Assembly (NCBI GenBank): GCA_965217195.1
Contig: CBDCHL010000003.1
Location: 1,053,260-1,117,259, forward strand
Length of the DNA stretch: 64,000 bases
DNA from: Bryobacterales bacterium
GTDB taxonomy: Bacteria; Acidobacteriota; Terriglobia; Bryobacterales; UBA6623
Direction: 5' to 3'
Under the pieces are notes generated by a model. The model did not search any database and was not told the origin of the DNA. It saw only the letters and a list, made by a program, of their open reading frames with translations. Below are positions 3,095 through 53,479 of this stretch, one piece after another (position 1 is the stretch's first letter; every line of letters begins with the position of its first letter). The position numbers were made by a program, and so were the translations under genes.

Positions 3095-3927
3095 GCGCCG
3101 CGTTTTCGGACGTCATTGACGGCGACCGGCTTGTCTTGCTCGGGAAAGCGGCCCTCCCGCACATCGTCGGCGTACTCAGCGGCGGCGGCCGTGATTTCGC
3201 GCCCCAGCTGAGCATATTGCTTGACGAAAGGCGGCACGAACCCGTCATAGAGGCCCAACGCGTCATGGCTGACCAACACCTGCCCGTCGCAATAGGGGCC
3301 CGCGCCGATTCCGATCGTCGGGATACGGAGCCGGCTCGTGACCTCGCGAGCCACTTCCTTCGGGATCGACTCGAGTACCACTGCGAATGCGCCGGCCTTT
3401 TCGAGCGCATGGGCGTCTTCCATCAGAGCTTCCGCCGCTTCCTCACTCCTCGCCTGTTTGCGAAAACCACCGAGCTGATGAACGGACTGCGGCAACAGTC
3501 CCAAATGCCCCATCACGGGGATGCCGACGTCCACCAAGCGCCGAACCACCTCGGTCACGGCCCGGCCGCCTTCCATCTTGACAGCCGAGGCCCCGCCCTC
3601 TTGAATCAAGCGCCCGGCGTTGCGCACGGCATCCTCGACGCTGACCTGAAACGTCATAAAAGGCATATCGGCGACGACCAGCGGCCGCGACGTTCCGCGC
3701 GTGACGGCCTTGGTGTGGTGCAAAATGTCGTCGAGCGTGACGGGAATGGTGGTGTCGTGTCCCAACACAACCATGCCGACCGTATCGCCAACTAATAGGA
3801 CGTCCACGCCGGCGCCATCAAGCAGCCGCGCCATTCCGGCGTCGTAGGCCGTCAGCATGACGATCTTCTTGCCGTGCCGTTTCATTTTCTTGAGGTCTGG
3901 GGCACGGACCTTTTTGAGTTCAGCCAT
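3091..3927 (-). CDS. panB: 3-methyl-2-oxobutanoate hydroxymethyltransferase
   Basis: 278 aa with MLTAYD, VGDTVGMVVLGHDTT, ADMPF and KMEGG motifs typical of PanB. It is translationally coupled to panC by a 4-nt overlap. Confidence 0.95.
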   Translation of the reverse strand: MAELKKVRAPDLKKMKRHGKKIVMLTAYDAGMARLLDGAGVDVLLVGDTVGMVVLGHDTTIPVTLDDILHHTKAVTRGTSRPLVVADMPFMTFQVSVEDAVRNAGRLIQEGGASAVKMEGGRAVTEVVRRLVDVGIPVMGHLGLLPQSVHQLGGFRKQARSEEAAEALMEDAHALEKAGAFAVVLESIPKEVAREVTSRLRIPTIGIGAGPYCDGQVLVSHDALGLYDGFVPPFVKQYAQLGREITAAAAEYADDVREGRFPEQDKPVAVNDVRKRGA

Positions 3928-4425: not shown

Positions 4426-5598
4426 TCAAGCGGCGTCGCCCGCCAGGTAGTCCAGCGCCGCTTGCACGCCGCCGCGAGAAAAAGGAACGCCGGCACAAGC
4501 GAGCCCCATCTCGACCGCGCCCAGCGTACCGGCCAGCATCGCTTCGTTGAAATCCCCCAGGTGACCGATGCGGAAAACGCGGCCTTTCAGCTTGCCAAGC
4601 CCCGCGCCGAGAGCCACGTTGTAGCGTTCAAAAACCAGCCGCCGGTAGGCGTCGGCGTCATGACCCTCGGGCATGAAAAGCGCGCTGACCGAATCGCTGT
4701 ACTGCCGCGGGTCGGCGCAGACCATCTCAAGCCCCCAAGAACGCGCGGCTCGGCGGGTTGCCTCAGCCAGCCGGCGGTGACGAGCGAAGACATTGTCGAG
4801 CCCTTCTTCGGCGAGCATGCGAAGCGCCTCACGCAACCCGAACAGCAAATTCGTCGCCGGCGTGTAGGGAAAATAATCCGCCTGGTTCGTGGTCAAAATC
4901 GCTTCCCAATTCCAATAGGATTTCGGCAGACCCGCTCCCTTGGCGGCCTTCAGCGCCTTTTCACTGACCGCGTTGAACGCGAGGCCGGGCGGCAACATCA
5001 AGCCCTTTTGCGAGCCGCAAATCGTCACGTCCACGCCCCACTCGTCGTGGCGCAGGTCGATGCAGGCCAACGACGAGATAGCGTCGACGAACAGCAGCGC
5101 CGAGTGCTCGGCGCGGTCGATGGCGCGGCGAACTTCCGCAATGTCGCTCGTCACCCCGGTCGAAGTCTCGTTGTGAACCGCCAGCACCGCGTGGATCTCT
5201 CCACCGGCGTCCTCGCGAAGTTTCGCCTCGACCACCGCCGGGTCCACGCCCCGCCTCCAATCGGTCTCGACGAAGTCGACCTCGAGCCCAAGCTCGATCG
5301 CCATATTCCGCCAGCCCGTCGCGAATTGCCCGGTCTCGAACGCCAGCACCTTGTCGCCCGCCGAAAGCGTGTTCACGAACGCGGCTTCCCAGGCCCCCGA
5401 GCCCGAGCCCGGGAAGACGATCACCGGGCCGCGCGTCTTAAAAACGTCTTTGAGGCCACCGAGGATCTCGCGAGTTAAGTCCTCAAATTCCGGTCCGCGG
5501 TGGTCGATCGTCGGAGCCGACATGGCGCGCAGAATCCGCCCCGGGATGTTCGTCGGGCCGGGGATTTGCAGAAAATGACGTCCGGGTTGTGTAGGCAT
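4426..5598 (-). CDS. Class-V pyridoxal-phosphate aminotransferase (serine--glyoxylate / alanine--glyoxylate type)
   Basis: The track ORF starts at TTG 5622; I prefer ATG 5596-5598 (MPTQPGRHFLQIPGPTNIP). Motifs are IPGPT near the N-terminus, HNETSTGV, and SQKGLMLPPGL (PLP lysine context), typical of the AGXT/SgaA family. Confidence 0.85.
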   Translation of the reverse strand: MPTQPGRHFLQIPGPTNIPGRILRAMSAPTIDHRGPEFEDLTREILGGLKDVFKTRGPVIVFPGSGSGAWEAAFVNTLSAGDKVLAFETGQFATGWRNMAIELGLEVDFVETDWRRGVDPAVVEAKLREDAGGEIHAVLAVHNETSTGVTSDIAEVRRAIDRAEHSALLFVDAISSLACIDLRHDEWGVDVTICGSQKGLMLPPGLAFNAVSEKALKAAKGAGLPKSYWNWEAILTTNQADYFPYTPATNLLFGLREALRMLAEEGLDNVFARHRRLAEATRRAARSWGLEMVCADPRQYSDSVSALFMPEGHDADAYRRLVFERYNVALGAGLGKLKGRVFRIGHLGDFNEAMLAGTLGAVEMGLACAGVPFSRGGVQAALDYLAGDAA

Positions 5599-50407: not shown

Positions 50408-50917
50408 ATGCGAAGAACCACAATACGACCAAAGCGGTTAGGCCTCGTCGTCGTCTTGACGCTGGCGCTCATCGTGGCGTTTTCTGGCCTTTGGCCGGAC
50501 CCGGTTAAAGGCGACCAGATAGTGACCGTCGAGATTCGCAGCGGGTCCATCGGCGTAGGCCCGGCTCAGTTGATGGAGTTCGTCGTGCTCAACCCCTGTG
50601 AAAGCTCGGCTGCTACGGTCCTCATGCAGTTCATCGACGCCGTAACTGGGGAGGTGCATAGAACCTTCGAGGGTGAGATTCAACCGGGAAAAGGTTTCAG
50701 GCGGAAAATATTCGAGGGTGTCGGCAATCCTGCGGAGAGGCGAAATATTCGCGTGACAGTAAAAATAACCTGTGAAGGGAAATTCGCCAAAGGATGCAAT
50801 TTTCTCTCATTATCGCTCGTCGGCGACGATATATTAGAGGTTACCGTTACGAGTAACAGTGACTTTAGTTATTCGGGGAACGCGCCTTTTTCGTGTCGTG
50901 TACCACTGGAACAGTAA
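50408..50917 (+). CDS. Small secreted/anchored protein, no recognisable family
   Basis: AAGGAG Shine-Dalgarno (50392-50397) 10 nt upstream of ATG 50408. It has an Arg-rich n-region plus a hydrophobic segment (RLGLVVVLTLALIVAF). G+C is locally low (23/60 at 50761-50820 by my count). The track start at 50195 is unsupported. Confidence 0.5.
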   Translation: MRRTTIRPKRLGLVVVLTLALIVAFSGLWPDPVKGDQIVTVEIRSGSIGVGPAQLMEFVVLNPCESSAATVLMQFIDAVTGEVHRTFEGEIQPGKGFRRKIFEGVGNPAERRNIRVTVKITCEGKFAKGCNFLSLSLVGDDILEVTVTSNSDFSYSGNAPFSCRVPLEQ

Positions 50918-51033
50918 ACAGAGTCGTCGGCACATATACCTGTGCATAACCAGGTCCCTATCCACCGGACCCAGCGTTGCACGTACACGCCAAGCCGGGC
51001 GGAGCGCAAGTTCTGCTCCACCGGCTCTTGCTC

Positions 51034-51220
51034 GTGGAGATCGTGGAGATCGGGGGGGGAGATCGGGGGAGATCGGGGGAGATCGGGGGAGATCGGGGGA
51101 GATCGGTGACAGGCAGCTAACTATGCTAAGAGATCGGCAAGAGATCGGTCAGAGATCGGTGACAGAGATCGGGACAGAGAATCGGTAAGAGAATCGGTGA
51201 CAGGCAGCTAACTATGCTAA
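51034..51220. repeat. Left tandem array, GAGATCGG core on the + strand (about 11 GATC-containing units plus 2 degenerate GAGAATCGG units)
   Basis: Units: gtggagatc x2 (51034-51051), a 13-mer, four perfect decamers gggggagatc (51065-51104), then longer units. The block ggtgacaggcagctaactatgctaa occurs twice, 91 bp apart (51105-51129, 51196-51220). Confidence 0.9.
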
Positions 51221-51237
51221 TCTGACCTCACCACCAC

Positions 51238-51930
51238 ATGTCACGCCAAGCCCGGGTGGTGGCGGAGGGCGTTCCGCACCACATCACCCAACGGGGCAAC
51301 AACCGCCAGGACGTCTTCCTGCTCGACGAAGACCGGCGGTTCTACATCGAAGCTTTACGCGCGCAATCCGAGCAGCACGGCCTGGCCATCTTGGGCTACT
51401 GCCTGATGACGAACCACGTCCATTTGGTCGCCATACCGAAGCACGCGACGTCGCTCGCCCGAGCGGTCGGCCGCGCCCATTGGCGCTACTCAGTTCGCTT
51501 CAACAAACAATACGGCCGAAACGGTCATTTGTGGCAGAACCGGCTTTATTCCTGTCCCTTAGGCCCCACACACCTTGTCACGGCGTTGGCCTATGTCGAC
51601 CTGAATCCGGTCCGCGCGTGCATAGTCGGCGAAGGACCCGAGTACCCTTGGTCGAGCGCCTCGGCGCATTGCGGAGACGCCATGAGCGACCGCCTGATCG
51701 ACCCCGGGGAATGGCACCGGATGGGCTTGGCGAGCGATTGGGAACAACGTTTGCGAGCCGAGTCGACGGGCGAGGGCGCCGCCGAAGTGCGGCAAGCGAC
51801 CTATTCCGGGCTGCCGTTGGGCGACGAGCAATTCATCGAACAGATGGAAGCGCGACAGGGCAGGCGCTTGCGGCCGCTCCCTCCAGGGCCCGCGCCGAAG
51901 GTGCTGAAATCCGCCGCCGGAGGCATGTGA
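51238..51930 (+). CDS. Y1 HUH transposase, REP-associated tyrosine transposase (RAYT) / IS200-like family
   Basis: 230 aa with PHHITQRGNNRQDVF, an HUH motif in MTNHVHLVA, and catalytic-Tyr context ALAYVDLNPVRA followed by YPWSS. This is the pattern of COG1943-type transposases. Confidence 0.85.
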   Translation: MSRQARVVAEGVPHHITQRGNNRQDVFLLDEDRRFYIEALRAQSEQHGLAILGYCLMTNHVHLVAIPKHATSLARAVGRAHWRYSVRFNKQYGRNGHLWQNRLYSCPLGPTHLVTALAYVDLNPVRACIVGEGPEYPWSSASAHCGDAMSDRLIDPGEWHRMGLASDWEQRLRAESTGEGAAEVRQATYSGLPLGDEQFIEQMEARQGRRLRPLPPGPAPKVLKSAAGGM

Positions 51931-52043
51931 CCTGGGTTACGTGGCTGTCACCGATCTCTGCTCCCTCCAGGGCCCGCGCCGAAGGTGCTGAAATCCGCCG
52001 CCGGAGGCATGTGACCTGGGTTACGTGGCTGTCACCGATCTCT
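51876..52043 (+). repeat. Perfect 84-bp tandem duplication (2 copies) spanning the 3' end of the transposase CDS and the right inverted repeat
   Basis: 51876-51959 is identical base-for-base to 51960-52043 by my reading. Copy 1 contains the last 55 nt of the CDS, including TGA 51928-51930. Confidence 0.9.
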
Positions 52044-52234
52044 CCGCCGATCTCTCCCGATCTCTCTCACCGATCTCTCCCGATCTCTCACCGATCTCCC
52101 CTCACCGATCTCCCCTCACCGATCTCCCCTCACCGATCTCCCCCACCGATCTCCCCACCGATCTCCCGTCCCCCGATCTCCCGTCCCGATCTCCCACCGA
52201 TCTCCGCCGATCTCCGGACTTTCTCCGATCTCGG
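52020..52234. repeat. Right tandem array, CCGATCTC core on the + strand (reverse complement of the left-array core; about 16 units here plus one at 51951)
   Basis: Periods are 10-14 nt. Three perfect 14-mers caccgatctcccct sit at 52089-52130. The last unit ccgatctcgg is at 52225-52234, 41 nt before the HEPN gene stop. Confidence 0.9.
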
Positions 52235-52274
52235 TCAGCAGGTCTCTGCGAGCCCCGCGCTGGGGAACTCTGGC

Positions 52275-52856
52275 TCACTCCATGAGCCTAAACCAATCTC
52301 GGACGGCAAGCCGAAGGCGCATCACCTCATCCTCCGCCAAGGGACTGCAGTGGGCAATTGGGGCTCTCAGGGCATTGAGGCTTGTCATAACCTTGTCAAA
52401 GGCTTTGCTGCTGTTGAATAGGTCGAAGCTAGCCCAATTCGCTCGCACTATCTCCCCGAGTTGGCCAAAGGTCGTGTAGTCGATTTCCTCCGTGGAGCGC
52501 GGGGTCAGACCCGCATCCAGCTCGCCCTGCATCGTTTTCTGGACTTTGTCCTGAACCGCATCGGGAACCTGCGTATCCCACCAAGTCGAACCGTGGTCTT
52601 CGTCAAGTCGAGCTGCGATGAGAGTCCGGATCCACGTTTCAAGACAGTAGAACAGCTCGTAGTGCATGCTCATTGTCGCGGCTTCCGCTCGCACTGACTG
52701 GGGAAACTGCGGGTAATAGGCTTCGTCGCGGTCAGTGGACATCTCGCCAGAGTCCCGCTCCAGGTTAATGTTGAACCGCTTCTCGACCGCATCGAGATCG
52801 CGCTCGGCCATGCGGTTGGATATTTCGAAGAGCTTAATCTGATCAGCAGCAGTCAT
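52275..52856 (-). CDS. Swt1-type HEPN-domain protein (putative RNase toxin/effector)
   Basis: 193 aa. The C-terminal two-thirds fits my recollection of the Swt1-like HEPN pattern (LETWIRTLIAARL, STWWD, IDYTTFGQLGEIV, NWASF, LNALRAPIAH) with an Rx4H motif (RAPIAH). ATG 52854-52856 overlaps the upstream stop. Confidence 0.65.
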   Translation of the reverse strand: MTAADQIKLFEISNRMAERDLDAVEKRFNINLERDSGEMSTDRDEAYYPQFPQSVRAEAATMSMHYELFYCLETWIRTLIAARLDEDHGSTWWDTQVPDAVQDKVQKTMQGELDAGLTPRSTEEIDYTTFGQLGEIVRANWASFDLFNSSKAFDKVMTSLNALRAPIAHCSPLAEDEVMRLRLAVRDWFRLME

Positions 52857-53479
52857 TTTCGTAGGAGGTTTTCGCGTAAGCTTTGAAAAATTGCGTTGAA
52901 GACCGCCCCATCGTCGGTCTTGGGCAGCACGAGGTTAATCGTATATGACAGATTCACCTTCATGTCCTGATCCGAAAGAATTGGGGGCTTGTCCATGACA
53001 GCGCCGCGCTCGGGTGCGGCCACCTTTTTGGCGGGCTTCGCTGCCTCGAAATCGGCGAACCTCTTCAATGCCTCGAAGGTGCTACAAATGCGTTTTACGG
53101 TGACGTTATCGCTCTTGAGACCGGTAATCTGCATGACCAGGCCCTTTAGATCTGCCCTGGCGAGCTTGTGAACGTATTCGTTACGCGCGTAGAGTTCCGG
53201 ATAGGCCGCCCTCATGCCTTCGGCAACCGCGTGCTTAGACTGTTGGGGGTTTCGGAAGCGACTGTGGCGGTCCGTTGGCTTACCGTCGCTGCTTAGCAAG
53301 CCGAGACGTTTGGCGACGGGAATGAACGCCAAAGCGCTCGCTGTCTTGAATCCGAGAACTGTCTTGAGAAAGTCCTGCGTGAAACGTTCGGGTTCCTGAG
53401 CTTCCTTCACTTTGTTGAGGATGTGTTCCAACATCCCGTACGAGGCCATATAGAGCGGAGTCTCGGATTGTCTTGCCAT
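52853..53479 (-). CDS. DUF5343-like protein (no catalytic motif seen; candidate partner/antitoxin/sensor of the HEPN protein)
   Basis: 208 aa. The N-terminus (PLYMASYGMLEHILNKVKEAQEPERFTQDFLKTVLGFKTASALAFIPVAKRLGLLSSDGKPTD) resembles the DUF5343 family as I recall it. The C-terminal tail reads VNLSYTINLVLPKTDDGAVFNAIFQSLRENL. ATG 53477-53479. Confidence 0.5.
   Translation of the reverse strand: MARQSETPLYMASYGMLEHILNKVKEAQEPERFTQDFLKTVLGFKTASALAFIPVAKRLGLLSSDGKPTDRHSRFRNPQQSKHAVAEGMRAAYPELYARNEYVHKLARADLKGLVMQITGLKSDNVTVKRICSTFEALKRFADFEAAKPAKKVAAPERGAVMDKPPILSDQDMKVNLSYTINLVLPKTDDGAVFNAIFQSLRENLLRK

Follow-up and report, generated by a model that had tools for sequence, protein, structure and literature searches.

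A 64,000-nucleotide stretch of DNA from a soil Bryobacterales bacterium (Acidobacteriota; assembly GCA_965217195.1, contig CBDCHL010000003.1, positions 1,053,260 to 1,117,259; hereafter termed the window) carries a small element resembling an insertion sequence (IS), of the type called a TIRtron, which encodes a Y1/HUH transposase (TIRYT) and whose borders are decorated by mirror-image arrays of partial copies of its own terminal inverted repeats (TIRs). Arrays of this kind recur across the family, they grow in place, and they differ between otherwise nearly identical alleles. We think it reasonably likely that these arrays are scars left in place by transposase nicking, polymerase extension and resealing at the element ends, and that the mobile unit does not include them. 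An earlier examination of the letters of this DNA (the sequence-only reading) had already suggested repeated abortive end cleavage and re-joining, which is the best supported of the explanations weighed below.

The octamer GAGATCGG occurs in 30 exact copies in the window, compared with 4.9 +/- 2.4 expected by chance, and 27 of these copies are located within positions 51046-52232. Ten lie on the plus strand to the left of the transposase gene and 17 on the minus strand to its right, as expected from the earlier description of arrays that are built, in opposite orientation, from the outer nucleotides of the element's own inverted repeats. Tandem Repeats Finder (TRF) reports a perfect 10-nt array (51055-51106, 5.2 copies), a 14-nt-period array (52032-52205, 13.9 copies, 82% matches) and a perfect twofold tandem duplication of 84 nt (51876-52043) that holds the 3' end of the gene together with the right inverted repeat. 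The second copy of this duplication, which the sequence-only reading did not mention, is the innermost right unit. When the flanks are split at each GAGA(A)TC, the left side comprises the intact end and 12 partial units, among which two GAGAATCGG variants and one GAGATCGTG are included, and the right side comprises 16 partial units, the 84-nt unit included, plus the intact right end. These figures correct earlier counts of about 11 and about 17, which were approximately right. The segment at 51099-51121 had been taken for the left end of the element; its sequence matches, but it belongs to an old 31-nt partial copy, and the intact end is located at 51189-51212. No further copy of the TIR end is present within the 64-kb window beyond the element, nor does the window contain an array elsewhere that lacks a Y1 gene. 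The features of the element are as follows.

51037..51188, plus strand: left array of 12 partial left-end copies, each beginning GAGA(A)TCG, with lengths in order of 9, 13, 10, 10, 10, 10, 31, 11, 11, 13, 12 and 12 nt.
51099-51129, plus strand: the 31-nt left unit, an exact prefix of the left end.
51189..51237, plus strand: intact left end, consisting of the TIR GAGAATCGGTGACAGGCAGCTAAC (51189-51212) and then a 5' leader containing TGCTAATCT.
51238..51930, plus strand: TIRYT gene, encoding a Y1/HUH transposase of 230 aa.
51936..51958, minus strand: intact right TIR, which reads GAGATCGGTGACAGCCACGTAAC on the minus strand.
51960..52043, minus strand: innermost right unit of 84 nt, an exact copy of 51876-51959.
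52044..52232, minus strand: right array of 15 short partial right-end copies of 10-18 nt.
51189..51958, plus strand: minimal mobile unit of ~0.77 kb, decorated by the arrays.

The 84-nt right unit consists of the last 55 nt of the open reading frame (ORF), the spacer and the right TIR, and each of the 15 short right units ends CCGATCTC on the plus strand. Three perfect 14-mers are found among the latter at 52089-52130, and the two 23-nt TIRs agree at 20 of 23 positions, both as originally described. The inverted-repeat core GTGACAG[G/C]CA[GC/CG]TAAC is present twice per side. Each TIR is laid out as a variable tip of 7-10 nt, followed by a conserved GGTGACAG/GGGGACAG motif and then by an inner arm, for a total of ~23 nt. 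A two-unit block, [GAGATCGGTGAxA][GAGATCGGGAxA], is mirrored between the two arrays (51151-51178 and 52051-52078, with 26 of 28 positions matching), and this could be due to independent recurrence or to copying between the ends. On both sides, the older units are preceded by G-runs and the younger ones by A. ORFs that span the arrays, such as that at 52025-52285, are artefacts of the repeats and were rejected as genes.

The product of the ORF at 51238-51930 matches the Pfam Y1_Tnp model (E = 1.3e-12) and contains the motifs NHVH, HLWQNR, YVDLNP and PWSSA. Among 30 relatives, the HUH residues (H60-V-H62), Y119 within YVDLNP, HLWQNR and PWSSA are invariant or nearly so, with both the HUH motif and the tyrosine fully invariant, and the original identification of the gene as a Y1 (HUH) transposase therefore stands. 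An AlphaFold2 (AF2) model of the protein (pLDDT 89.6) places a helical C-terminal part packed on the core. Its best structural match is E. coli TnpAREP with its repetitive extragenic palindromic (REP) hairpin (4ER8, TM 0.70 on target), and the next-best matches are the TnpA proteins of IS608 and ISDra2. Judged from the conserved residues and from this model, the transposase looks active. The C-terminal 99 aa yielded no Pfam match up to E = 10, and no separate DNA-binding domain was detected there in this way.

The locus is a small IS-like TIRtron encoding a TIRYT, and is neither a REP-flanked REP-associated tyrosine transposase (RAYT) locus nor an IS200/IS605 element. The sequence-only label of a RAYT or IS200-like gene thus holds for its Y1 component only, given that the protein scores below the cutoffs of both relevant NCBIfam models (62.7 versus 80 for the RAYT model NF047646, and 17.5 versus 55 for the IS200 model NF033573) and that the gene is bounded by TIRs. 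TIRYTs correspond to RAYT group 1 and to TnpAY1 subclass 2.1, and they constitute the largest RAYT-like group. The terms 'TIRtron' and 'TIRYT' refer to Y1 genes with long flanking inverted repeats carrying GGGGWSAS, for which an Acidobacteria subgroup has been noted (Di Nocera et al. 2013, PMC3733652). Most TIRYTs belong to TnpAY1 subclass 2.1, whose members exhibit NHVH, W[EQ], Y[IV]xLNP and SS motifs, have a median length of ~238 aa and show no association with REP sequences (Quentin et al. 2018, PMC6006769). The window element resembles these genes in encoding a Y1/HUH transposase of ~230-240 aa with NHVH, WQ, Y[IV]xLNP and SS motifs, and in holding this gene between long terminal inverted repeats instead of REP hairpins. 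Its GGTGACAG motif matches GGGGWSAS at 7 of 8 positions, with T for the third G, and the motif in most relatives is GGGGACAG or GGGGACGG. However, the C-terminal helix-turn-helix (HTH) or Bac_DnaA_C-like similarity of subclass 2.1 is not detected by Pfam in the last 99 aa, the whole 0.78-kb unit is multi-copy within genomes, and the TIRs reported in the two papers are single or, in some families, dispersed, with no description of mirror-image hypervariable tip arrays.

The element also differs from RAYTs in the strict sense, which are single-copy and have REP/REPIN hairpins on their flanks that abound in the genome, in that its protein falls below the NF047646 cutoff, it is without a REP-like hairpin, and its family is multi-copy in genomes. 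With IS200/IS605 elements (IS608 and ISDra2) it shares the HUH/Y1 fold and an architecture consisting of little more than a transposase gene, but the ends of those elements are same-strand subterminal hairpins where inverted repeats are found here, and their Y motif is Y---Q rather than Y---NP. To our knowledge, no end arrays occur in IS200/IS605 elements. The closest genomic relatives exhibit 97% and 92% protein identity. Within one genome, paralogous copies share 97% identity across 781 bp, and their homology stops at the TIR tips or within one repeat unit (~13 nt) of them, which indicates that the ~0.78-kb unit moves as a whole.

Mirror-image tip arrays are a family-wide trait. A search for end arrays was made at 63 related loci with enough flanking sequence, from Acidobacteriota, Planctomycetota and other phyla, wherein an array was scored when some 7-mer occurred at least four times within 300 nt of the gene. 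Arrays were found at 22 of these loci, compared with 1.5% of 517 control windows taken from the same loci; the other 41 loci did not reach this threshold. It is the reverse complement of the left unit that recurs on the right; the same-strand sequence is almost never seen there (3 of the 63 loci, with no more than one copy each). The sequences of the array units are unrelated between elements, as listed here by locus (L numbers).

Window's clade: unit GAGATCGG.
L014: unit CCTATCGG.
L013: unit GGGAGATGAG, more than 25 units.
L017: unit GAGTTCGGGG.
L070 (Pirellulales): unit GAAACTGGGG.
L025: units TAAATAGG and AATATTAGG.
L035: unit GGATAATAGG.
L033: unit GGAAACCGG.

In most elements the two tips are inverted repeats of each other. 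In L070, L020 and L018, the two ends have different outer 7-8 nt but an otherwise identical TIR (in L070, GAAACTG versus GTACAACG).

Five loci were recovered from several samples, with transposase proteins that are 100% identical within each locus, and the arrays differ at all five. The window locus is present in three other assemblies (L001, L085 and L086), among which the outer units are shared and the inner units are different. The alleles of this locus carry 4/1/4 perfect decamers, and their innermost left units are gagaatcggtaa once, gagaatca twice, or gagaatcggtaa twice plus gagaatcgtaa, all of which share the GAGAATC variant of the intact end. The 84-nt unit is found in two alleles (84 nt in the window and 83 nt, one base shorter, in L085) and is missing from a third, and the alleles also differ in one 13-nt unit. 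Between L002 and L003, the differences are one 10-mer and an innermost unit of 54 nt. Relative to L217, L216 carries four additional innermost right units, a 78-nt one included, and L218 and L219 have 9 versus 3 left units and differ by one extra innermost right unit. At the single insertion site represented by L207-L210, the protein is identical and 0, 7, 12 and 16 extra left units are present, with L207 being array-free; this allele series shows growth in place directly. That arrays are made after insertion also follows from the paralogous copies, whose arrays differ (L006 versus L007).

Long units lie near the intact end, with those of 84 nt and 54 nt abutting it and the 78-nt unit of L216 separated from it by three short units. 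Our reading of these alleles is that new units probably arise beside the intact end and copy its current sequence. The window and L085 differ by a single point change in 5.3 kb, and L208 and L209 by one in 3.1 kb; the arrays change much faster than point mutation. An informal negative control is provided by L212-L215, which represent, in four samples, a family member without a recognisable right TIR, with an apparently interrupted left end and with no arrays. The flanks of these four are nearly identical, exhibiting a few point differences and no length change. The possibility that the arrays are artefacts of assembly, which had been raised at the outset, is ruled out by four independent assemblies of the window locus, wherein L001, L085 and L086 carry the same outer units, and by dozens of metagenome-assembled genomes (MAGs) from different projects.

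The boundaries of the units were analysed by pooling exact repeats of at least 8 nt between the outer flank and the intact end from 113 ends. Counted from the GAC of the motif, units begin mainly at -9 to -13 and stop most often at -2 to +2, with some extending as far as +90, such that the typical unit is the tip up to approximately the start of the conserved motif. Overall, units span from the element tip 7-84 nt inward, and the longer ones are distributed as follows.

Window: 31 and 84 nt.
L003: 54 nt.
L006: ~60 and ~40 nt.
L216: 78 nt.
L025 and L068: ~42 nt.

The long units of the window (84 nt), L003 (54 nt) and L216 (78 nt) carry element-internal DNA that includes the 3' end of the gene. 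Other tandem duplications contain flanking DNA, and all three of these end exactly at the boundary between tip and motif (tip/GGTGACAG in the window); in the list below, a slash marks the junction.

L002: 63 nt, two copies, ...GAGATCG/GTGACAG.
L210: three copies, CACC/GATAGGGCCGTG.
L017: 42 nt, four copies, CCCC/GAACTCC...

Two fixed anchor points therefore bracket the tip, one at its outer edge and the other at the tip/motif boundary.

An outer anchor, a variable inner end, new units by the intact end, mirror symmetry and a second anchor together fit what would be predicted for nick-primed resynthesis. In such a process, the transposase would nick the GGTGACAG-carrying strand at the outer edge of the tip and would remain bound covalently to the element's 5' end through a phosphotyrosine. 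A host polymerase would then extend the 3'-OH of the flank inward with strand displacement, usually to about the tip/motif boundary and sometimes for ~80 nt, after which the enzyme-held 5' end would be joined to the new 3' end. One partial end copy would be gained per cycle, directly beside the intact end, and because the ends are inverted repeats, identical events on the other strand would generate the mirror-image array. A second nick, in the complementary strand at the tip/motif boundary, could yield the rarer outward duplications into flank DNA, and ordinary slippage among perfect units would later alter their copy number.

This scheme is adopted from a published amplification model. Nicking, extension of the 3'-OH by a host polymerase and attack on the Tyr-5'P linkage were proposed for the amplification of tandem bacterial interspersed mosaic elements (BIMEs); TnpAREP cleaves and strand-transfers in vitro, and the number of tandem BIMEs varies between strains (Ton-Hoang et al. 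2012, PMC3333891). The REPtron described in that work, consisting of E. coli tnpAREP and tandem BIMEs, is like the window element in having a related Y1 enzyme (that of 4ER8, the best structural match), in the variable repeat numbers that flank its gene and in a copy number that depends on the strain. It is unlike the window element in that its unit is a whole REP/iREP pair of at least 80 nt, present in hundreds of copies across the genome, whereas the TIRYT arrays consist of truncated 7-84-nt prefixes of the element's own end that are confined to its borders, and whereas the whole gene-plus-TIR unit transposes here.

Several points weigh against the proposal that the arrays result from nicking and resynthesis. 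The putative nick sites are deduced only from where the repeats begin and end. Many units consist of a prefix with 1-4 bases added, or have small internal deletions, which is messier than the simple model, and changes in the copy number of perfect decamers need only slippage and are equally explained by it. Under a loose criterion (up to three mismatches), inner units are more like the intact end at 27 of 32 ends, but distant chance matches inflate this figure, and under a strict criterion the divergence gradient is weak (rho 0.21, p 0.011). Finally, Y1 enzymes normally need single-strand hairpins, and single-strand folding of the window ends and arrays, a check suggested with the sequence-only reading, gave nothing beyond shuffled controls (z -1.1 to +1.2). 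A REP-like or IS200-like hairpin reading of the window copy was dropped on account of this folding result.

For the family at large, hairpin potential is evident. In 32% of 87 ends, the tip (plus GG) can pair with the inner arm over at least 6 bp, as against 3.6% when tips are shuffled and 10.8% when tip and arm come from different loci, and in the paired ends the conserved GAC(A/G)G(Y)CA falls in the loop, as in the right ends of L008 and L009 (GAGATCGGTG-ACAGC-CACCGATCTC). Thus many TIRs of the family are REP-like hairpins with a conserved loop, and the window copy, to judge from its ends, has lost the pairing between tip and inner arm.

Y1/HUH transposases are thought to act strictly by single-strand peel-and-paste. 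From their geometry, the two anchors may reflect staggered nicks, one on each strand, to either side of the 7-10-nt tip, and if both anchors are real cleavage sites, this would amount to double-strand fill-in end processing by a Y1/HUH enzyme, an idea that we put forward tentatively and consider doubtful. If true, one tip copy would be made per abortive excision, and the arrays would constitute a cumulative in vivo record of transposase firing.

The arrays could alternatively be regarded as ordinary micro- or minisatellites, generated by enzyme-independent slippage or template switching at ends that happen to be prone to slip, for example through G-runs or the direct repeat GGTGA-N4-GGTGA. Many tips indeed hold a built-in short direct repeat (for example, GGTGAGATCGGTGA), G-run lengths vary in L016, and perfect decamers differ in number between the alleles of the window locus. 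However, slippage leaves unexplained why unrelated tips in different phyla expand, why they do so only at TIRYT ends and in mirror orientation, why units of 31-84 nt begin exactly at the tip, and why all three flank-containing duplications end exactly at the tip/motif boundary. Stalling at a bound protein does not help in this respect, as we infer that a protein roadblock would duplicate DNA outside the protein footprint and not the TIR itself. We therefore judge an enzyme-independent origin to be unlikely, and slippage alone is likewise an unlikely primary cause. An improbable alternative is that tandem tips are maintained by selection as iteron-like binding sites, which would attract or titrate the transposase, or control its promoter. 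At 9-14 nt, the unit periods come close to one helical turn, the left array is located just upstream of a probable promoter, and short tandem direct repeats specific to each element adjoin a conserved motif acted on by an HUH enzyme, much as iterons and a conserved loop do at Rep origins. Yet the iterons beside the nick site of HUH Rep origins in geminiviruses, circoviruses and rolling-circle replication (RCR) plasmids are few, regularly spaced and conserved, whereas the units seen here are truncated, have irregular periods, number from 0 to more than 25, and vary freely between alleles and near-identical strains (0-16 with an identical protein). Moreover, the sole conserved motif is missing or incomplete in most units, 41 of 63 loci are without an array, and the protein has no separate DNA-binding domain detected by Pfam in its C-terminal 99 aa.

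Still less probable, in our estimation, is that the arrays are remnants of repeated self-insertion, or are target-site duplications or excision footprints at a preferred target resembling the tip. As far as is known, Y1 elements such as IS608 always adjoin a fixed target oligonucleotide, which lends this idea some appeal, as does the conservation of tips among copies at different loci. On the other hand, units hold element-internal sequence of up to 84 nt, which is impossible for a target duplication, the flanks carry inverted and not direct copies, and the array-free L207 has the insertion without an extra tip. On account of the element-internal DNA and this array-free insertion allele, both target-site duplication and a pre-existing satellite were rejected. 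The sequence-only reading had also pointed to the dense GATC clusters, which might act through Dam-type methylation or strand discrimination. GATC is indeed present in every unit of the window arrays and of the arrays of several Bryobacterales relatives, but the same architecture persists with GATC-free tips in L013, L014, L017, L025, L035 and L070, with mirror arrays built from GAGATGAGG, CCTATCGG, GAGTTCGG, GAAACTG and TAAATAGG. Outside the element, the window shows no GATC bias (422 observed versus 448 expected), and we regard a role for methylation as extremely improbable.

A candidate extended -10 element, the sequence TGCTAATCT, lies between the left TIR and the gene's ATG and is conserved in relatives. 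At this location (left ends of L013, L015-L021 and L022-L083; window 51213-51237), TGnTAATCT or TGnGATAAT is conserved in Acidobacteria, and in Planctomycetota TTGACA is found directly after CCTATTTA. The conserved leader is probably the transposase promoter, which would overlap the TIR. A simple sigma-70 promoter scan of the window gave no match, and the conservation of the leader thus stays a sequence observation. An Rfam scan of 50800-52400 matched no RNA family. Directly to the right of the element is an overlapping pair of genes, HEPN_Swt1 (52275-52856, minus strand) and DUF5343 (52853-53479, minus strand), which could form a toxin-antitoxin or defence module; this pair is placed outside the element because it is not found beside the 82% homolog.

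Several other arrangements were seen among the related loci. In L004, solo left ends without a gene are located at 3762-3800 and ~4800-4890; they carry tip arrays and an inner segment in duplicate (GGCAGCTAACTATG, two copies), and look like remnants of more elements in an insertion nest. An IS110-family IS (Pfam DEDD_Tnp_IS110 and Transposase_20, ~1.69 kb) interrupts the TIRYT inverted repeat precisely at GGTGA^CAG. This is seen in the two TIRs of L004 (2450-2463 and 3212) and in the right TIR of L005 (3211-4898), and it is reminiscent of those IS110-family elements that target REP sequences. In L010, the element lies between ~150-bp direct repeats of flanking sequence (~2200-2480 and 3450-3560). 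A metagenome scan for GAGATCGGTGACAG (at least 120 loci) gave, among the matches listed, almost exclusively chance hits without a TIRYT gene and carries no information on solo copies; of those listed, only L144 was of interest. This 2.1-kb metagenome contig has no transposase gene, and at 1680-1900 it contains two solo palindromes GAGATCGGTGACAGGCACCGATCT, wherein a left tip is fused to a right tip with a 9-bp stem and a partial tip unit precedes each. These could be REP-like or miniature inverted-repeat transposable element (MITE)-like derivatives, or excision footprints.

The element class is known and the amplification model is known for BIMEs, while the tip arrays appear to be undescribed. 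The literature found on TIRYTs and TIRtrons holds no description of them, in line with the novelty suspected in the sequence-only reading, and Bertels et al. 2017 are silent on such arrays for group 1 RAYTs. In practical terms, the arrays offer hypervariable markers of strains in metagenomes of Bryobacterales and Planctomycetota, and they can break short-read assemblies, as illustrated by contig L086, which ends inside one. With regard to the biology of the family, the arrays provide natural, nucleotide-resolution footprints of where TIRYT probably nicks and how often. They suggest that end processing is frequent in wild populations, given that the arrays change no less often than several kb of DNA acquire point mutations. 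In vivo repeat amplification by TnpAREP-type enzymes is a model derived from in vitro reactions, and for biochemical work the TIRYT arrays supply substrates and predictions.

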